Origin: a virus
Length of the DNA: 23,074 nt
IMG/VR virus record: IMGVR_UViG_3300031419_000012
Strand: one strand, 5' to 3'
Shown: positions 1,578-16,868 of the stretch, piece by piece
Layout of the letters: every line of letters starts with the position of its first letter
How positions within the stretch are numbered: position 1 is the first letter of the stretch
Program-made: the position numbers and the translations under genes
The notes under the pieces: generated by a model
Seen by the model: only the letters and a program-made list of their open reading frames with translations
Databases searched by the model: none
What the model was told of the DNA's origin: nothing

Positions 1578-1630
1578 GCATGTTATTTTCATGTATAACT
1601 CACGATCCTTATGGCTGATTGCGTAAAACC

Positions 1631-2488
1631 ATGAAAAGTAAAATGTTAATCTCTGATGTTCTCTACGCTGATACCTTGAAGAAAAACAAAGAGCTAACAG
1701 TTAACCAACATAATACCGTTCAGCCAGTAGCTATAATGCGGCTAGGTGTGTTTGTGCCTAAACCAGCTAAGAACGCTGCTATAAGCCCACTGGTAGATGC
1801 GTCTGAACTACTCAAAGGGTTATCCCTCGCACGCGCTGAAGGTTATGACAACATTCAGATCACAGGCCCGCGTCTGGATATGGATACTGATTTTAAGGTT
1901 TGGATAGGCATTGTTCGATCATTTCATGATCATGGCCGACAGGGTAATTCAATTTCACTGAAATTCACCGAATTTGCCCGCAATTGCGGCTTCCCCTCTA
2001 AAAAGATTGATTCTGAATTACGCGAAAACATACATCAGTCTCTTATAAAAATACGTTCAAAAACAATAGCTTTTAAGCGTGGTAAAACTGCTATTGCAGG
2101 CTATATAACTGGTCTTTTAAAAAGCGGTGGGTACGATTCTGATGAAGATACAATCGAGCTTGAAGCCGATGAAAGGCTGTGGGAACTGTATTACTTTGAT
2201 CATCGCGTACTGCTGCAGCAGCATGCTATTAAAGCCTTACCCAAGAAAGAGATAGCCCAGGCATTGTATACGTTCATAGAAAGCCTGCCTGCAAAACCTC
2301 AGCCTGTGTCTTTTGCTCGCATTCGTGACCGGTTATCACTCACAAGCTTGGTAAAAGAGCAGAACAGAATGATTAAAAACGCGGTGAAGCAGTTACAAGA
2401 CATAGGTTATCTGGAAGCATCAGTCATAAAAGAAGGTCGTGAAAATTACGTTTTAATTCATAAACGTAATCCAAAATTAAAGCCTTAG
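1631..2488 (+). CDS. repA: Plasmid replication initiator RepA, P1/Rts1/RepFIB family
   Basis: ISDVLYAD..KELTVN..NTVQPVAIMRLGVFVPKP, AEGYDNIQITGPRLDMDTDFK, ALPKKE.AQALYTFIESLP and RNPKLK are collinear with P1 RepA. ATG 1631 is preferred over TTG 1619 by length. Confidence 0.96.
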   Translation: MKSKMLISDVLYADTLKKNKELTVNQHNTVQPVAIMRLGVFVPKPAKNAAISPLVDASELLKGLSLARAEGYDNIQITGPRLDMDTDFKVWIGIVRSFHDHGRQGNSISLKFTEFARNCGFPSKKIDSELRENIHQSLIKIRSKTIAFKRGKTAIAGYITGLLKSGGYDSDEDTIELEADERLWELYYFDHRVLLQQHAIKALPKKEIAQALYTFIESLPAKPQPVSFARIRDRLSLTSLVKEQNRMIKNAVKQLQDIGYLEASVIKEGRENYVLIHKRNPKLKP

Positions 2489-2499
2489 TGCAAGCGTAA

Positions 2500-3033
2500 A
2501 AGGTGTGCTGTGAGGGGAAAGAAGTTGGTGGATGAAGGGAAAAAGGTGGGCCATGAGGGGAAACACCAAGCCATCTATGCCTAAAGCCCAACAAGCAAAA
2601 GCATTTTGCCTGTTTTCTATGCATTACTGAGCGATCATTGACCTTAATTTGCACGAAAACTTACCCTTTGTAGCTTTGATACTGAGACATTCCCCTCACA
2701 GCACACCTTTCTCCCCTCACAGCACACCTTTTTGTGATTAATGCCTCAAAAACTACTGCCTCAAGAAAGTATAAAAAAAACATAAAATCAAAAAGATAAA
2801 TACTAAAAGGTGTGCTGTAGGGGGAGTAAAAAGAGCTGGCAAAGGGAAGGTTATCTTGATTGCGAAGAATGGAAAGAATTTGCCTGATATTAGGTATCGG
2901 CAAAGGATACAATGCGGGCTTGAAGTCAACCATGATTAAGATTTGAGCTTTATGTCAGCTCGCCCAACCACTTTCTCTCTCAGCACACCATTTTTCTTTA
3001 TCGACTGCCTTTTTTCCCCTCACAGCACACCTT
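2500..3033. repeat. Downstream copy-control iterons (incA-like), mixed orientation
   Basis: Forward copies at 2500, 2543 (degenerate), 2807 and a weak one at 2522. Reverse copies at 2691-2709, 2712-2730, 3013-3033 and a degenerate one at ~2972-2990. Confidence 0.9.
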
Positions 3034-3080
3034 TCTATCTCTACCAGCCACTAGCAGCGGAAAAAAGGCCAGCGCCTATC

Positions 3081-3942
3081 ATATTTATAAACATTACTGA
3101 GAATCAGAACTGAGGGCGATTACTACACATTGTTCAACAGGCTGACGCTGGTAGCGCAGAGCGCCAGCAATGATGTTTGCTAACATGATTGCTGCCAGCA
3201 ATCCGCCGGAAAGTGTTTGTAAACATGGCAGGCAGTGATTGATGCGATGAAAATAACAGCAAATTTGGCATTTTCTAATGCGCCATCATGATTGCAAACA
3301 TCTTTACCGGATAACTCCAGCCCGGCTGGCATGTTTGCAAACATTTTTACCGCTGTTCGGGATCTCCATCATGTTTATAAACATTGTGACCTACTTGTAG
3401 TAATCGTGCTGGTGGCGCAGAACGCTGGCCACGATGTTTGCAAACATGACAACCACCAGTATTCCGCCAGAAAGTGTTTATAAACATGATGGACGCTGCT
3501 CACGCACGATACATTGCCCTGGCGCAATTGGACTGGCACGTTTGTTAGCATGTTTATAAACACTTTTCAGCCTGACACCCGATCCCATCATGTTTGTAAA
3601 CACTGTTAGTCTATTCATGGCAACGGCTGACGCCTGCCATGAAACCAGCAACGCGGCAGCGATTGGCCGTTCAGGCCGTGAGGGCAATTTCTACACTTCT
3701 CACATCCCCACAATCGGCCCTGCCGCTGGTGGCTATCATGTTTGCAAACATCGTTAGTCTATTCATGGCAACTGTTGCTGGTTTCATGGTGGAGGGTGGC
3801 GCAGCCACCAAATACGCTCGTAATATGTACAGATTGAACCTGTTTACCATGAATAGACGAACATTTGCCTGCTAACTGAGTGGGCTACCATGAATAGACT
3901 AACGTTGCCATGAAACCAGCAACATGAGGGCAATTCTTACAT
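3081..3942. repeat. Complex array of 14-bp palindromes RTGTTTRYAAACAY plus three other repeated motifs; candidate centromere or other protein-binding array
   Basis: Palindrome copies at 3081, 3173, 3213, 3288, 3331, 3371, 3434, 3474, 3550, 3590 and 3738. Four pairs are exactly 40 bp apart. The repeat is directly visible; its function is inferred. Confidence 0.85.
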
Positions 3943-3981: not shown

Positions 3982-4009
3982 AAATAAAAAAGCCGCCCGA
4001 AGGCGGCTT
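3982..4009 (-). terminator. Intrinsic terminator of the small-peptide mRNA
   Basis: Minus strand AAGCCGCC-TTCG-GGCGGC followed by TTTTTTATTT (cUUCGg loop), a few nt after the stop at 4014. Confidence 0.9.
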
Positions 4010-4013
4010 ACTG

Positions 4014-4136
4014 TCATTTGCTGTGGATTACTGTCACCGGAGCATTGATGGTGGTATTGATGTTCATACCCTCACCGCCGCTATGGGCGTTCAGCAATGC
4101 CACCAGCAGTGACACAACAAGTGCGTTGCGTCTCAT
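4014..4136 (-). CDS. 40-aa hydrophobic peptide, candidate type I toxin
   Basis: MRRNALVVSLLVALLNAHSGGEGMNINTTINAPVTVIHSK: basic N-terminus, short hydrophobic helix, polar tail. It has its own terminator and a long leader complementary to a divergent sRNA. An in-frame ATG at 4214 is an alternative start. Confidence 0.65.
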   Translation of the reverse strand: MRRNALVVSLLVALLNAHSGGEGMNINTTINAPVTVIHSK

Positions 4137-4449
4137 GTCTGGAGCCTTACATTTGGACCAGTGGCGTTCGGGGCGCCGTACAAGAGAAGAAAGCTTCTGC
4201 TTGTGCTCGGTCATAGTTGTTAAAGGGACAGTCAAGGTTCCGAATGGCTGAGAATCCACCCCTTGCTGTATGCCGTTGAATAAAGCATGCCATATTACTT
4301 ATGTGCTTTCATTGCCTTTTCTGATTCCACTCTTAAGAAGTGACAAAAGTGTGGAAAAAACCGCTTTTTTGTTCAAAAAATGCTCTGCAATTTTTGGCCA
4401 CTATTGTGGAAACGCAAAAAAAACCCAAGAATTATTTGCATAACACAAG

Positions 4450-4477
4450 TTGCAAACACTATTTCAAGACGTATACT
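4450..4477 (+). promoter_or_regulatory. Sigma70-type promoter for the sRNA
   Basis: TTGCAA (4450-4455), 16 bp, TATACT (4472-4477). The predicted start at ~4484-4485 coincides with the first base of the 17-nt antisense block. Confidence 0.7.
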
Positions 4478-4483
4478 GGCCTT

Positions 4484-4621
4484 TGAAAGCTTCTGCTTGT
4501 GTTTGCTGCTTCAAGCAAATCTGCAGCAGGCGAAGGTTGCCTGAGAACATCCTTTGCCTTCTGGATAAATGCCTGAGAACATTTTCCGGATTCATCAAAA
4601 CCGCCTACGGGCGGTTTTTTT
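4484..4621 (+). ncRNA. ~137-nt structured sRNA, candidate type I antitoxin
   Basis: Bounded by a promoter and a terminator. Its 5' GAAAGCTTCTGCTTGTG (4485-4501) is identical to 4189-4205, so it is antisense to the minus-strand leader. Two hairpins (4528-4559, 4561-4589) carry the same CCTGAGAA loop. Confidence 0.72.
4597..4621 (+). terminator. Intrinsic terminator ending the sRNA
   Basis: AAAACCGCC-TACG-GGCGG followed by TTTTTTT. Confidence 0.9.
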
Positions 4622-5171: not shown

Positions 5172-5191
5172 TACTGTATTTTTATACAGGC
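5172..5191. promoter_or_regulatory. LexA (SOS) box overlapping the umuDC -10 element
   Basis: CTGT-ATTTTTAT-ACAG at 5174-5189, TATACT at 5170-5175 and GGAGG at 5196-5200. Confidence 0.92.
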
Positions 5192-5205
5192 AAAAGGAGG
5201 TGAAT

Positions 5206-5649
5206 ATGATGCGATTAGAACTGATAGCCAAACCGGCATATACCGCGCCACGACAGGCATACTTGCAGTTTTTAGAGAGGGTTGCAGCGGGCTTTCCGTC
5301 GCCGGCAATAGGCTACGAAGATACGCCGCTGGATCTGAATGAGTATTGTGTCCGGGCTAAAACGGCGACCTATTTTGTCCGCTGCCAGGGCGAATCGATG
5401 ATTGATGCCGGTATTTTTGACGGCGATTTGCTGGTGGTTGATAAATCGCGCACGGCGGCGGACGGACAGATCGTCATTGCCTCAGTGGACGGTGAATTTA
5501 CGGTAAAAAAGCTGCAGCTGAAGCCGGAGCCGATGCTGCTGGCCATGAACCCGCGCTATAAGCCGATCCCGATTGAACCGGAGTCACTGGAAATATGGGG
5601 CGTGGTCACTTACGTGATCCACAGCACTGACAATGTTTCTGCACAGTGA
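5206..5649 (+). CDS. umuD: UmuD/MucA-type DNA polymerase V subunit (S24 autopeptidase)
   Basis: VAAGFPSPA cleavage site, GESMIDAGIFDGDLLVVD (catalytic Ser) and GEFTVKKL (catalytic Lys). The start is ATG 5206 or 5209 after GGAGG. Confidence 0.95.
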   Translation: MMRLELIAKPAYTAPRQAYLQFLERVAAGFPSPAIGYEDTPLDLNEYCVRAKTATYFVRCQGESMIDAGIFDGDLLVVDKSRTAADGQIVIASVDGEFTVKKLQLKPEPMLLAMNPRYKPIPIEPESLEIWGVVTYVIHSTDNVSAQ

Positions 5650-6898
5650 CGTTAACGCGTTCTACGTGTCCGCCGAGCTGGCATTCAGGCCGGACCTGTA
5701 CGGGCGCCCGGTGGTGGTGGCGACGAACAATGACGGGTGCATTGCCGCACTGAACAAAGAGGCGAAAAACGTCGGGCTGAAGCGGGGCGATCCGCTGTTT
5801 AAAAACCGGGACACTATCCGGCGCTATGGCGTGGTGGTATTCAGCAGCAATTACACGCTGTACGACGCATTCAGCAAGCGCTTTCACACCATCGTGGGCG
5901 AGTACGTCCCTAACCTTGAGGCGTACTCAATCGACGAGGTATTTGGCTCTCTCGATGGCATGTCAAAGCTGGTGGACTATCAGACCTTCGGAGAGGAGAT
6001 CCGGCGCACTGTCATTCAGCACACCACGATGAAGTGTGGCGTGGGGATAGCAGAGACCAAGACGCTCTGTAAGGTTGCCACGCACGCAGCAAAGACCTGG
6101 CCGAAAACAGGCGGCGTGGTGGTGCTGACCGACCCGGCGCGGCGCGACAAGCTGCTGTCGCTGCTGGACGTGTCCGAAACGTGGGGAGTGGGGAGCCGGA
6201 TAGCCGCCAGGCTGCGCATGATGAACATCAAGACGATGCTCGACCTTGCCCGCGCTGACACAACCACAATCCGCAAAACGTTTAACGTGATGCTGGAGCG
6301 CACGGTAAGGGAGCTGCGCGGCGAACGCTGCTTTGAGCTCGAGGAGAACCCGCCCACGAAGCAGCAGATTGTGGTGAGCCGATCCTTTGGCAAGCGCCTC
6401 ACCAGCTTGGATGAAGTGAGCAACGCGGTTTGCTTCTTTGCCACCAGCGCCGGCGAAAAGCTGCGGCGGGAAAAGCAGTACTGCCGGAATATCACAGTAT
6501 TCATCCAGACCAGTAAGCACGATCCGGACTACCCATACTACTCGCGCGGTGCCAGCCATTCGTTTACCACGGCCACACAGGACACGCGCGATCTGATTGA
6601 TGCAGCCGTGCGCGGCCTGCGGGCTATCTGGCGCGATGGCTACCAGTATGCAAAGGCTGGCGTGATGCTGGGGGAGTTCTGCGGCTCAGAGCAGCAGCTT
6701 AACCTGTTTGATGAAGCGCCACCGCGTCCTGGTAGCGATAAGCTGATGGCTGTTATGGACAAACTGAACAGCTACCAACGCGGCACACTATTTCTGGCAG
6801 GACAGGGCGTAAATCCGGCTTACCAGATGAAGCGAGAAATGCTGTCACCACGTTATCTCACACGCTGGGAAGAATTACCTGTTGTAAAGTTAAAGTGA
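5633..6898 (+). CDS. umuC: UmuC/MucB-type Y-family translesion DNA polymerase V catalytic subunit
   Basis: DVNAFYVSAE, NNDGCIAA, YSIDE, SRSFG, YAKAGVML and MKREMLSPRYLTRWEELP motifs; overlaps umuD. Confidence 0.96.
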   Translation: MFLHSDVNAFYVSAELAFRPDLYGRPVVVATNNDGCIAALNKEAKNVGLKRGDPLFKNRDTIRRYGVVVFSSNYTLYDAFSKRFHTIVGEYVPNLEAYSIDEVFGSLDGMSKLVDYQTFGEEIRRTVIQHTTMKCGVGIAETKTLCKVATHAAKTWPKTGGVVVLTDPARRDKLLSLLDVSETWGVGSRIAARLRMMNIKTMLDLARADTTTIRKTFNVMLERTVRELRGERCFELEENPPTKQQIVVSRSFGKRLTSLDEVSNAVCFFATSAGEKLRREKQYCRNITVFIQTSKHDPDYPYYSRGASHSFTTATQDTRDLIDAAVRGLRAIWRDGYQYAKAGVMLGEFCGSEQQLNLFDEAPPRPGSDKLMAVMDKLNSYQRGTLFLAGQGVNPAYQMKREMLSPRYLTRWEELPVVKLK

Positions 6899-13302: not shown

Positions 13303-14052
13303 GTGCTTTATAAATATGTAGGAAATGAAGATCCATTAAAGGCGATCGATTATCTCAAGCGCTTCGTGAACGATGGAACGATCAAAGCCACTGCTCCACG
13401 GCAATTTAACGACCCTGCAGAATTCAAAGTTAACTTTGTTTTCGATGCTACTCAAGATGAAAAAAAAGGATTCGTTCGCCGCCTGTGGCCTGGTAAAAAA
13501 GAAGAAGTCTATGATAATTGGGTGAATAACAGAGCGGAACACGTTGAAAACAATGATGCTCTTAGGCTTCGCGCAGCGCTTCTTCAGACTGCAGGAGTTA
13601 TATGCCTGACTCTTGAGCCAGATAATTACTTAATGTGGTCGCATTACGCTCATTCTCACTCAGGTTTTTGCATTGGCTTCTCTGATCAAGTGCTTAATAG
13701 CTTAAAAACAAAAGATTGCGTAGCTCATGCTTATGTTGAATATGAAGAAAAACCACCTTCAGTGAATTTCTATAATACCGATGAGGAAGAAGTTGGAAGA
13801 GCGCTCTTCACGTATAAAAGCAAAGTATGGGAGTATGAGAAAGAATTTAGAGTGATTTTTAGAGAATCTGGAATAAGAAAATTAGAAATCTCATCAATAA
13901 AAGAAATTGTACTAGGATGTCGGGCAAGTGATGAATTGGAGGCGTATGCCAGAACTTTAATTGGTTCAGGTATAGGTATATTCAAAATGAGGGAGTCAAT
14001 TTCTTCATACCAGCTTGAGAAGATTGAGTTGAAAGATAATGTGTATTTTTAA
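13303..14052 (+). CDS. DUF2971-family protein
   Basis: LYKY, FNDPAE, ICLT...LMWSHYA.SHSGFCIGF, KSKVWEYEKEFRV and IKEIVLG motifs; AT-rich; AAGGA RBS with GTG start. Confidence 0.85.
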   Translation: MLYKYVGNEDPLKAIDYLKRFVNDGTIKATAPRQFNDPAEFKVNFVFDATQDEKKGFVRRLWPGKKEEVYDNWVNNRAEHVENNDALRLRAALLQTAGVICLTLEPDNYLMWSHYAHSHSGFCIGFSDQVLNSLKTKDCVAHAYVEYEEKPPSVNFYNTDEEEVGRALFTYKSKVWEYEKEFRVIFRESGIRKLEISSIKEIVLGCRASDELEAYARTLIGSGIGIFKMRESISSYQLEKIELKDNVYF

Positions 14053-14122
14053 CTATAATCTCCACCTTCAAAAAAAGTAACTTTACGTTATTAAATAGGC
14101 GCTTAGTGCGCCTTTCCTATGG

Positions 14123-14151
14123 TTGCTCTTAGTGGATCACATCCCTAAAAT
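14123..14151 (+). promoter_or_regulatory. Putative sigma70 promoter of the acyltransferase
   Basis: TTGCTC, 17 bp, TAAAAT, just after a hairpin at ~14097-14115. Confidence 0.55.
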
Positions 14152-14193
14152 GCGGCCATCTTTACTTTTATCAGACAATCCTCATACATACTC

Positions 14194-15270
14194 ATGACAC
14201 AACAGCTCAAATCTATTCAGGCGCTGCGAGGGCTTGCCTGCCTCGCCGTCGTTACCTTTCATTTCCGCTACCAGATAAAGGCGCACTATCCGGCATTGAC
14301 CAAACTGCTTTCAACCGGCGCTATTGGTGTGGATCTGTTTTTCATCCTCAGCGGCTTTGTTATCACGCTCTCTGTATCGCGTATGGGTACAGGCTTTGCT
14401 GCAGCGGGAGACTTCCTGAAGCGCCGTGCGCTGCGCCTGCTGCCCGCCTACTTCATTCTGCTGCTGATTAACTTCCTGTTAAGCGGAGCAATGGCGACGT
14501 TCCACTATGCCGATAAGACGCAGGCGCTGATTAGCGCGGCGACGCTCTCTGTCTACCTGCCGCAGCACGCGCCGTTTTACGTGGACGACAGCGGGTTTAT
14601 GGGCGTGCGCTGGACGCTCAACTATGAGTTTCTGTTTTACCTGATGATGGCCGTATGCCTGCTGGTGCGCGCACGCTGGGCGGCGCTGGCCGCAATGCTG
14701 GGCGCGGTGCTGGTGGCAGTGCCGATGGTAGCAGGCCACCAGCCGACGCTGCTGGTGCATGGCTACGACATGGGGTACGCCTACATTAACCTGATGACCA
14801 ACCCGATTATCTGGCAGTTTGCCGCGGGCGTGCTGATTGGCTTGGTTTACCCGTACATGGCGCGTCTGCCGGTGGCAACCCGTGTGCTGTTCCTGCTGGC
14901 AGCGGTTGCCCTGTTTGTGCAGCACATTATCAGCCATCAGCATATCGGGCATGGTCTGATGGCGTCCGGTACCGTGCTGGCGCTGCTGCTGGCCGCTATG
15001 GCGTTCAATGACAGCTGGTTAGGACGCATCACGCCGCGCTGGCTGGTGTTCCTGGGCGATATTTCTTTCTCCGTCTACCTGATTCACATTGTAACCAAAG
15101 ACCGGTTATCAAAATCCTTTACAGATCAGGGTATGACGTTCTTCGTGTGTAACGTCCTGCTGGCGCTGCTGCTCGGCTGGCTCAGTTACCGTTATATTGA
15201 GCCAATCGGACAGAAGATTGTGCGCCGGCGCAAAGAGAAAGCGCTCCGCACCGCAAGCGATGCCGCATAG
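14194..15270 (+). CDS. Acyltransferase-3 (OafA/YrhL-like) membrane O-acetyltransferase
   Basis: IQALRGLA..AV..FH, GVDLFFILSGFVI, RRALRLLPAY, WTLNYEFLFY, LGDISFSVYLIH and SYRYIEP motifs; multiple TM helices. Confidence 0.92.
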   Translation: MTQQLKSIQALRGLACLAVVTFHFRYQIKAHYPALTKLLSTGAIGVDLFFILSGFVITLSVSRMGTGFAAAGDFLKRRALRLLPAYFILLLINFLLSGAMATFHYADKTQALISAATLSVYLPQHAPFYVDDSGFMGVRWTLNYEFLFYLMMAVCLLVRARWAALAAMLGAVLVAVPMVAGHQPTLLVHGYDMGYAYINLMTNPIIWQFAAGVLIGLVYPYMARLPVATRVLFLLAAVALFVQHIISHQHIGHGLMASGTVLALLLAAMAFNDSWLGRITPRWLVFLGDISFSVYLIHIVTKDRLSKSFTDQGMTFFVCNVLLALLLGWLSYRYIEPIGQKIVRRRKEKALRTASDAA

Positions 15271-15345
15271 CCCGTAACCACTCTGCCGCAAGGGTTTGAG
15301 CCTGTCAGCTATACTTACTGGACAGGCTCAACAAAGGAGTAAGCG

Positions 15346-15552
15346 ATGAAATGTCCGACATGCGGTGCAGAGGCTTTTGTTTACGACACGCGCGACGTCC
15401 AGCTGAATACGGGCAACCCGGATGACATTGTAGAGGATGTGAAAGGGAGCCATTGCCTGGCCTGCGGAGAGGTGATCGTGGATATGTCAGAGGCCGATTC
15501 ATTCATGAGGAAGGTCAGCGCACTGGAAGCTGCAGCGGCACACAATCATTGA
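15346..15552 (+). CDS. Stand-alone MqsA/YgiT-type zinc-finger domain (no HTH)
   Basis: MKCPTCG...DTRD...VKGSHCLACGEVIVD..EAD.FM matches the MqsA N-terminal domain. It has an AAGGAG RBS and its own terminator, with no mqsR-like gene adjacent. Confidence 0.82.
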   Translation: MKCPTCGAEAFVYDTRDVQLNTGNPDDIVEDVKGSHCLACGEVIVDMSEADSFMRKVSALEAAAAHNH

Positions 15553-15558
15553 CACAAT

Positions 15559-15581
15559 AGCCCGCATCAAGCGGGCTTTTT
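15559..15581 (+). terminator. Intrinsic terminator
   Basis: AGCCCGC-ATCAA-GCGGGC followed by TTTTT. Confidence 0.8.
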
Positions 15582-15735
15582 AATGCCTTGAGTTACTGAA
15601 ATGCATAACTGGCAAGTAAACTTATCAAATTCTGCAAAGCTAGCTTTGCAAAAATCAATTAAATCATAAACATACATAGATTTTTGTGGTAAGTGGTGAG
15701 TGAGCCTTGTATGGTGACTACAAACACCACATACG

Positions 15736-16413
15736 ATGAATCTGCCCATGACTGACCAGCCAAACCGCCGCGCCCGCCAGCTTGTAACTGACCTTGAACA
15801 AATCCAGCAAGACTTATCGCAAAAGGATTTTTGCTGGTTGAATGTTGTCGATCTTACTGATTACAAGGTGTTCCATATGGTCAATGAGACTGATGGCCGT
15901 ACAACCATTTCTGTTACATGCTCGCCTAATCTGGTTTCAGTGGCATTTTGGGACACACGCAACGGGTATATGTTCAAAACTAAAACCCGGGATCCGCTTA
16001 CAGTCATGATTGCTGAAGAACCCATATGTCCGGAAGATTGGGAACAGAATCTGTTCTCACACTCTAATAACGGACCAGAGCAGGAAGGCTACTATTGGGA
16101 CTGGACCGGTTACTCGATGGCACTCACTGAACTAATAGAAGAGTGGTTCCGGGGCGACAAGCTATCTACTGATCTAATCGCCATAAATGCTTTGCGATCT
16201 TCAATCCGGGAAGTTAAAAAAATTATCGGCGTTGCTCCCTCACTGGCTGATGTAGTAAGCCTGAATAATAGCTGGCGGAACAAGTGGCACCCCTTACCAG
16301 AACTAGTGCCTGTTGACGACTACCTGATATGGCACAGGCCGTTTCTGCGCGCGCTGGCCGTCATTCACCAGCTATCTACAATCGTTCAAAATAATATGTC
16401 CGAACAGAGTTAG
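15736..16413 (+). CDS. Hypothetical protein (Trp-rich, 225 aa)
   Basis: Long ORF with an AT-rich upstream region; no family recognised. Confidence 0.7.
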   Translation: MNLPMTDQPNRRARQLVTDLEQIQQDLSQKDFCWLNVVDLTDYKVFHMVNETDGRTTISVTCSPNLVSVAFWDTRNGYMFKTKTRDPLTVMIAEEPICPEDWEQNLFSHSNNGPEQEGYYWDWTGYSMALTELIEEWFRGDKLSTDLIAINALRSSIREVKKIIGVAPSLADVVSLNNSWRNKWHPLPELVPVDDYLIWHRPFLRALAVIHQLSTIVQNNMSEQS

Positions 16414-16817
16414 CCTTTCATCTCAAAGCGGGATTTTTCAAAATCATGATATACCGCCGGGTTGCTAAAAGCGGGGAAAGTAGCATTGTGAACCGCTGAT
16501 TTTAGCGCTTCGCAGTAGGCTCTGTTGCCTTCACTGGTTCTGGCGCTTGTAACAGTGCCGTCCTGCTTAAATTCCAGATGTACCCGGCAATACTTCCCTT
16601 TCCACTTTTGCGGGTCGGCAATGTTAGCGTTGATGACGTTCCTGATTGCACGCGCCTGCGCACCCCATTCATCCTGGTCATCCCAGGTACCGGAGCCACA
16701 GCCGCCTAATGCCGTTGTCTTATGGCAATCAGAAGGGTGTAACGCCGTGCAGCCCGTAGTCAGGCTACCCAAAACCACCAGCATAGCGATCTTCACTGCT
16801 GCTTTAACGAATATCAC
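16410..16817 (-). CDS. Lipoprotein consisting of a TolA C-terminal (domain III)-like domain
   Basis: GTG 16817 follows AGGAG; signal ...LVVLGSLTTG|C. IRNVI...KGKYCRVHL..KQDGTV.....EGN.AYCEALKSAV..ATFP.....AVY..F parallels TolA-III, including its two cysteines. Confidence 0.8.
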   Translation of the reverse strand: MIFVKAAVKIAMLVVLGSLTTGCTALHPSDCHKTTALGGCGSGTWDDQDEWGAQARAIRNVINANIADPQKWKGKYCRVHLEFKQDGTVTSARTSEGNRAYCEALKSAVHNATFPAFSNPAVYHDFEKSRFEMKG

Positions 16818-16868
16818 GTATTGCTCCTGAAATTTAAACAACCCGCACCCTGCGGGCTTTTTACTGCC

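Follow-up and report, generated by a model that had tools for sequence, protein, structure and literature searches.

The stretch of DNA analysed in this work, hereafter the window, comprises 23,074 nucleotides of the viral record IMGVR_UViG_3300031419_000012 and encodes Ref, a Rep3 initiator, UmuDC, a dUTPase and a tyrosine recombinase. The Rep3-family replication initiator and the repeat array downstream of it occupy positions 1619..3941 of the plus strand, and umuDC, together with a site at 5174 that from its motif we take to be LexA-box-like, occupies positions 5174..6898 of the same strand. Between these regions lies a module of two divergent units, i.e., a minus-strand ORF for a TimP-like peptide of 40 residues (4014..4136), and a plus-strand unit predicted to produce a TimR-like antitoxin small RNA (sRNA) of ~137 nt (4485..4621). 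A search for CTG-N10-CAG between 3900 and 5250 returned a single site, the one at 5174 that precedes umuD, and none in the module, so SOS control of the module was rejected. Related modules were collected by BLAST, peptide and pattern searches, and once identical ones were merged, 25 distinct complete modules were obtained, carried by Pantoea plasmids, phage-plasmids and environmental contigs. Elsewhere in the window, the segment 3' of rep (3078-3941) is dense in repeats, both direct and inverted, which belong to three or more motif types and probably represent partition sites or iteron-like elements, and the cargo at 13303-16841 includes a DUF2971 protein, an Acyl_transf_3 acyltransferase, possibly a modifier of surface polysaccharides, and a small protein with a TolA C-terminal domain.

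The initial annotation had described a minus-strand ORF of 40 codons with its own terminator, and both are present in the sequence: the ORF list and its translation place the gene from 4136 to 4014, and the terminator scan detected an intrinsic terminator of the peptide mRNA at 3982..4009 (hairpin 3990-4009 followed by a U tail, minus strand), which is kept in alignment A1. The deduced peptide shows a basic N-terminus, a hydrophobic stretch, a glycine-rich linker and a tail of alternating hydrophobic residues. Its best hydropathy over 11 residues is 3.13 versus 2.9 for TimP from E. coli, and in this sequence-based comparison its length and hydropathy agree with those of the 38-41-residue TimP proteins. 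The ORF that begins at the 4136-type start is intact in 25/25 modules, with 39-43 codons; the alternative start at ATG 4214 that had been suggested was rejected, given that an in-frame ATG occupies that position in only 2/25. Among the 19 C-terminal codons of 21 of the 25 modules, 20 synonymous and 22 non-synonymous single-base differences were counted. Regarding the predicted promoter of this gene (4284..4312, minus strand), an extended -10-like TGG-CATGCT (4292-4284) is found together with a weak -35 box, ATGAAA (4312-4307). The former was detected by script in 21/25 modules, plus L008 by reading, and a -35 box at exactly the window spacing was scored in only 3/25. The hexamer TAATAT, earlier named as a possible -10, does exist at 4292-4297; nevertheless, it occupies the same place in 2/25 modules, while TGG-CATGCT is kept in most, and its role as a conserved -10 was rejected. 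From the conserved TGG-CATGCT the peptide mRNA likely starts at ~4277, which shortens the leader from the ~150 nt previously estimated to ~141 nt.

The sRNA is preceded by the promoter TTGCAA-16-TATACT (4450..4477, plus strand), a motif kept in 25/25 modules, and the 141-nt unit 3' of this promoter is structured (z -4.0, with 0/200 shuffles equally stable), which agrees with the divergent promoter-to-terminator unit proposed initially. The predicted transcript consists of a 5' seed of 21 nt (4485..4505), a small hairpin, two hairpins with identical loops and an intrinsic terminator (4597..4621), the last not listed by the simple terminator scan. The first twin hairpin (4528..4559) exposes the loop CCUGAGAA at 4540-4547, with an unpaired probability of 0.99, and the second (4560..4590), which corresponds by homology to the one hairpin found before the terminator of chromosomal TimR, exposes the same loop at 4572-4579. 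The stems of these hairpins vary in a compensatory manner while the 8-nt loops stay constant; in the stem of the first one, 6/11 pairs changed on both sides and 97.5% of the cells are paired. Two further observations concern the surroundings of the sRNA. A 7-nt word at 4443-4455, just 5' of the -35 box, repeats part of the seed in inverted orientation and is kept in many modules, and in NZ_CP141613.1 (L003:2615-2670) an IS3 element splits the sRNA terminator, leaving the peptide gene and its leader whole.

The leader of the peptide mRNA is best described in the light of previous work on timP (PMC11228461, PMC13000454, PMC7667032). According to the accessible portions of these reports, the timP leader folds into four stem-loops and TimR binds in SL2, ~50 nt upstream of the ribosome-binding site; a pseudoknot between SL1 and SL3 is formed by sites 1 and 3, the pairing of sites 2 and 4 opens SL4, and the pairing of sites 1 and 2 defines an off state. 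The elements found in the minus-strand leader of the window are those of the published timP switch, in identical order. From 5' to 3', these are the apical loop of SL1, AUUCUCAG (4248..4255, unpaired probability 0.84), which is the partner of the twin sRNA loops; site 1 (4239..4244), the 5' strand of the predicted pseudoknot; site 2 (4207..4212), which through its pairing with site 4 is predicted to open SL4; the seed target in SL2 (4189..4209), located 53-73 nt 5' of the ATG; site 3 in the SL3 loop (4167..4172), the 3' strand of the predicted pseudoknot, with an unpaired probability of 0.99 in the nested fold; and SL4 (4139..4161), a weak stem that includes site 4 (4161-4156) and a Shine-Dalgarno-like AAGG (4148-4145). 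Sites 1 and 3 can form 4-6 of 6 pairs in 25/25 modules and their outer pair changed on both sides, which speaks of sequence potential only. Likewise, sites 2 and 4 form 4-6 of 6 pairs in 25/25 modules, in two sequence versions, and sites 1 and 2 form 6/6 pairs in many modules, 5/6 in the window and 3/6 in the L006 type.

The first contact between both RNAs is mediated by the seed. The exact 17-mer repeat that had been noticed at 4189-4205 and 4485-4501 is indeed present, with 1.3e-5 occurrences expected in 640 nt, and the pairing proposed between the sRNA 5' end and the leader could be extended to a duplex of 21 nt that includes G-U pairs (4485-4505 with 4189-4209). The energy of this duplex, -35.7 kcal/mol, was reached by 0/2000 shuffles of the leader, and together with the expected frequency of the repeat this excludes an origin by chance. 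A seed duplex of 20-21 nt was present in 21/21 modules scored, and although loss of the match in homologous loci had been named as a sign against the pair, in the 25 modules the seed and its leader target change together and the match is not lost; neither the seed nor the leader loop was selected for by any of the searches. Cognate duplexes range from -31.8 to -37.9 kcal/mol in 25/25 modules, which fall into four seed families, compared with approximately -14 to -27 kcal/mol for duplexes between families (ten modules tabulated), and the cognate partner is the best partner in 17/25. One contig carries two tandem modules with different seeds and loops, whose duplexes are of -33.6 and -37.4 kcal/mol for the cognate combinations versus -18.0 and -15.7 kcal/mol for the crossed ones, as would be expected for insulated pairs. 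The prediction that these two divergent units form a type I toxin-antitoxin pair, with an antisense seed at the sRNA 5' end, is therefore well supported, and of the candidate new divergent system proposed in the initial annotation, the pair and its 5' seed stand by their co-variation in relatives; its novelty does not, given that the module leads to timP/TimR, as described below.

With respect to distribution, four Pantoea plasmids, each 90-95 kb long, have matches to the module and the recombinase region of the window. One of them, pEuc3, has annotated genes for terminase, portal, capsid, tail, maturation control and a late-promoter activator, and from these phage genes we presume that it is a P1-like phage-plasmid; it also carries an annotated RelE/ParE pair. 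The closest named peptide match is from Pantoea eucrina, related modules are present on three IncF conjugative plasmids of Pantoea, and the eight carriers that have a name are without exception plasmid records. The module often adjoins the replicon, and the replicons of the different carriers are unrelated. Its presence is patchy: the two P1-like records closest to the window flanks (90-95% identity) do not have it between the repeat array and umuD, so the module can be considered an accessory cassette. In the phage collection only terminator-length matches (12 records) were found, and a loose twin-word pattern run on GTDB contigs (29/64 parts) revealed the module architecture in 0/120 loci among the matches listed. 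Two carrier-related records deserve mention. NZ_CP019707.1 (L007:2000-2130) contains a remnant without leader and sRNA, in which the terminator and the 3' portion of the peptide gene are all that is left. CP060164.1 (L235), labelled Acinetobacter venetianus, aligns with the window at the same coordinates and identities as the Pantoea plasmid pPSP-26e and bears blaTEM-1 and blaCTX-M-3 on a P1-like backbone, and its host label may be wrong.

The most likely job predicted for this module is a weak stabilisation of the plasmid. Weak addiction, or defence, is put forward as a guess, because TimP harms cells only when overproduced; published timP work indicates that growth is inhibited only upon overproduction and that deletion of timR permits growth. 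A possible, if rather doubtful, reading keeps the same RNA switch and antisense control and sees in the peptide a low-level membrane modulator, involved in envelope remodelling or in superinfection or mating exclusion, that becomes harmful only when overproduced. The toxicity of TimP only on overexpression agrees with it, the TimP authors themselves raise a toxicity-independent role, the module is accessory, and the phage-plasmid pEuc3 already has its RelE/ParE pair. However, the module has an elaborate off-switch with insulated seed families, a design that is typical of type I toxins, and the exclusive occurrence of plasmid records among the eight named carriers, with the module often beside the replicon, also speaks against this reading. 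For timPR, this plasmid-borne branch offers a setting in which addiction can be assayed directly.

A second contact, absent from the initial annotation, involves the twin loops of the sRNA (4540-4547 and 4572-4579) and their partner in the leader (4248-4255). Each of the two sRNA loops can pair with the apical loop of SL1, which in the window lies 4 nt from site 1, and the pairing reaches 7/7 for both loops in 24/25 modules and 6/7 in L167. Since the pattern searches selected for twin loops, these are present by construction in the loci so obtained; nevertheless, they were also found in all 7 plasmid modules detected by BLAST and in 6 viral loci detected by the peptide, and neither set was selected for them. 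In six modules AT replaces AG at all three sites. In a tree from which the loops were masked, one of these modules (L219) is placed beside an AG sister (99/93) and the other five form a separate clade (100/99); hence the joint three-site change from AG to AT occurred twice, at separate and well-supported places of the tree.

The contact extends beyond this branch, given that chromosomal TimR homologues, E. coli included, have one such hairpin before the terminator, with a loop that matches the SL1 loop of their own timP. In a family-wide set, 45/46 loci pair at all four core positions, one of which is fixed by construction by the anchoring pattern, and for 12 distinct loop types 71/84 positions pair, a value reached by 0/100000 permutations of loci that share ancestry and hence are not independent. 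The 46-locus counts leave out six weak RF00126 matches, which are the ends of one longer unrelated gene, as well as L189, L192, L196, L182 and L183, which are partial or unscorable. A later test set was drawn from 240 further genomes, 36 of which contributed a total of 41 new loci: by register, core pairing was observed in 36/38 scorable loci, with two core pairs fixed by construction, and the two remaining loci, of one type, were unpaired; when loops were called from folding alone, 21/34 had at least 4 pairs (0/20000 permutations). L240, flagged for a repeated word, turned out on reading to have a single loop, and in L167, L259 and L271 one position of the contact fails to pair. The match spans 7 bp in the twin-loop branch versus 4 bp in the E. 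coli/Salmonella type; the published timP loop, the TimR primers and L182 indicate that Salmonella would have the same 4-bp version as E. coli. As a separate observation, TimR from E. coli K-12 (L009:1357-1460 and 1856-1867) has a further complementarity of 9-11 nt to the extreme 5' end of timP, in the lower strand of SL1, that also occurs in L180, L181 and L202, a group in which the loop kiss involves only 4-5 bp.

It is unlikely that only the 5' seed matters, with the loop complementarity remaining from a shared origin, or with the repeated word being recognised by a protein on DNA or RNA. It is true that the seed is necessary in Salmonella, that the available portion of the published probing reports no protection of the SL1 loop, and that at the DNA level all three words are copies on one strand. 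Nonetheless, all three words are located at hairpin tips on the strand predicted as transcribed, compensatory changes affect four positions family-wide and, twice, three sites at once, and the loop pairing held in new loci. A functional loop-loop contact thus remains the preferred reading, with a restricted task. As described in the accessible portions of the published work, in Salmonella timP the effects of TimR were seen in SL2, with minor ones at 57-58, 142-144 and ~165 and none in the SL1 loop, and a TimR seed mutant is described as binding-incompetent, so the loop contact could not suffice alone. Considering also that the predicted energy of the kiss is only -7.5 kcal/mol, it is best read as a transient interaction that would nucleate pairing or select a fold, and not as a stand-alone repressor.

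What is new here is the doubled loop of the sRNA and the predicted second contact with the SL1 loop, which co-varies family-wide. In the accessible text of both timP mechanism papers (PMC11228461, PMC13000454) the terms kissing and loop-loop are absent, and only the 5' complementarity was found described in the text, figures apart, of the mBio, Shigella (PMC5333039) and APEC (PMC13188913) papers on timPR as far as it was available. A commentary from 2024 pointed out that TimR destabilises the timP pseudoknot despite a binding site that does not overlap it (PMC11295053). The co-varying contact, situated 4 nt away from site 1 of the pseudoknot, provides a concrete candidate for what connects binding and destabilisation. 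The doubled loop is itself an unusual antitoxin design, and the natural compensatory loop alleles make the second contact testable in E. coli K-12.

The relationship of the module with timP/TimR was not evident from direct tests. RF00126 (ryfA) had no match in the window or in six relatives (314.9 bits for the E. coli control), the NCBIfam model toxic_TimP (NF040796) missed 4/4 peptides of the branch and recognised its E. coli control, and a profile-profile comparison of the branch peptide with TimP (hhalign) gave a probability of 18%. The chromosomal leader model R2, built from 19 chromosomal loci, found none of the twin-loop leaders, the chromosomal peptide HMM scored the window peptide above only 184/200 shuffles, and Pfam and the ESM Atlas returned nothing for the peptide or the leader. 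In the opposite direction, the sRNA model R1, built only from 11 twin-loop RNAs, has matches in 4/151 enterobacterial genomes, and the immediate divergent neighbour of each is a match to RF00126 (91.2, 85.1, 51.8 and 39.1 bits), in two cases over the gathering score. The terminator helix of R1 is two columns out of register; since both loop hairpins are right, this at worst makes the model less sensitive. Likewise, in 401 genomes the best small-ORF matches of the branch peptide profile are at loci of the same layout; the profile gave 31 matches, of which 15 loci were inspected, and among these L137, L138, L160, L165 and L166 are toxin-antitoxin-like and L167 is a twin-loop module, and RF00126 scored 39.7-51.8 bits at 3/4 of the peptide-profile loci tested. 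The diverged chromosomal loci are the closest in peptide (17-26 bits with the twin-branch HMM, 0/200 shuffles).

Given that R1 and the peptide profile both land on RF00126-positive loci despite the failed direct tests, the module is called a remote branch of timPR; it is filed as a variant branch and not as a member of the curated families, since RF00126 and NF040796 give no match and the reciprocal leader model is negative. At the profile level, the predicted homology to timP/TimR is detectable in one direction only, from branch profiles to RF00126 loci. From these comparisons, the module of the window is probably a remote mobile branch of timP/TimR, working like timPR and descended from it. 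The shape of the peptide had been likened to TimP, and this is borne out by the branch-only profiles and by a leader with the timP switch anatomy; the same results run counter to the claim of a new system. An independent invention, i.e., a module that works like timPR without descent from it, seems quite improbable: four direct library or profile tests fail, as it would predict, but two independent profiles built only from the branch arrive at ryfA/timP loci, and the module shares with timPR its loop frame, peptide layout and sequence of switch sites. A role of the sRNA in replication control, as a regulator resembling ColE1 RNAI with the peptide being incidental, was rejected as highly improbable. 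It is favoured by the position near rep and by weak, shape-only RNAI scores, which are below the cut-off (RF00106; 22-30 bits against 47); against it, no complement of the loop word was found near the start of rep, and the module occurs on unrelated replicons and is missing from close relatives with the same flanks.

Some chromosomal loci recovered along the way are of interest by themselves. One enterobacterial genus (G124, G250 and G332; L137, L138, L160, L165, L166 and L231) has several diverged timPR loci, all below the Rfam cut-off, and some of them are in tandem with different seeds. In L182:1440-1640 and L253:1450-1650 a chromosomal timPR apparently collapsed through the seed repeat, which fused the 3' part of timR to timP from SL2 onwards, with loss of SL1 and of the two promoters. 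The direct repeat behind the pairing may thus also act as a hotspot for deletions, unless the collapse is an artefact of assembly. On the minus strand of E. coli K-12 (L009:1695-1790) there is a second TimR-like unit whose seed fits the timP allele of L179 rather than the timP of K-12 itself, and which may be an orphan antitoxin.

Returning to the module of the window as a branch of timPR, we consider it quite likely that it is a distant plasmid-borne form of timP/TimR in which two contacts, a 5' seed of 21 nt and a doubled loop-loop kiss, would allow the predicted sRNA to prevent translation of a peptide that is likely located in the inner membrane. By analogy with the accessible portions of the timP mechanism papers (PMC11228461, PMC13000454), the unprocessed mRNA would switch between two folds: an off fold with sites 1 and 2 paired and SL4 closed, and an on fold with the site 1-3 pseudoknot, in which the pairing of sites 2 and 4 would open the ribosome-binding site. 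The seed would invade SL2, here also covering part of site 2, and hold the message off. Before this, either twin loop could kiss the loop of SL1, at a distance of 4 nt from site 1, tethering the sRNA and speeding or steering the invasion by the seed, and having two copies of the loop would raise the rate of capture. After loss of the element, the sRNA would decay and the peptide would be made. A more general hypothesis, for which we see the case as evenly balanced, is that all the antitoxins of the TimR family, those of E. coli and Salmonella among them, use a loop-loop kiss with the SL1 loop of timP, next to the pseudoknot, that lets them pick out and undo the active fold, and that the mobile Pantoea branch doubled this loop into a bivalent antitoxin that would guard plasmids and P1-like phage-plasmids.

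Compared with known systems, the module is closest in anatomy to timP/TimR from Salmonella and E. coli (ryfA, RF00126; NF040796). Both have a divergent, non-overlapping layout and an sRNA with its own terminator, a hydrophobic peptide (38-41 residues in TimP), a leader of ~140-150 nt with four stem-loops, and a 5' seed directed against SL2, ~50 nt upstream of the ribosome-binding site, of ~18 nt in timP/TimR and 20-21 nt here; the potential for pairings 1-3 and 2-4 and a loop in the hairpin before the terminator that can pair with the SL1 loop are also common, and pairing 1-2 is of variable strength among the modules. In contrast, the branch of the window lies below detection by RF00126, NF040796 and the chromosomal leader model, and its loci escape Rfam, Pfam and NCBIfam; it resides on plasmids and P1-like phage-plasmids, and its antitoxin, of ~137 nt, has two identical loops instead of the single loop of the ~100-nt TimR in the chromosomal homologues examined. 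No paper on a plasmid, phage-plasmid or Pantoea timPR was found among the matches listed, in a search of running text from mostly open-access literature. The diverged chromosomal timPR loci (G018, G054, G124, G250 and G332) share the loop frame with a 7-bp match and have the closest peptides, and differ in their single loop, another loop dinucleotide and other seeds.

Other type I systems are less similar. The antitoxin is likewise upstream and non-overlapping in tisB/IstR-1, shoB/OhsC, zorO/OrzO and dinQ/AgrB (PMC8594479), and the Rfam search of the window gave no match to any of these four; tisB and dinQ are controlled by LexA, and tisB also needs processing of its mRNA, whereas the module of the window has no LexA-like box. 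As for loop-loop contacts, in the par system of the Enterococcus plasmid pAD1 (Fst/RNA I-RNA II), also a plasmid type I system, the available portion of the report describes a reversible kiss that precedes pairing at direct-repeat sites (PMC7472228). The par system differs from the module described here in that its genes are convergent with a shared terminator, the kiss takes place between terminator loops, the pairing covers the translation start, and the peptide is unrelated.
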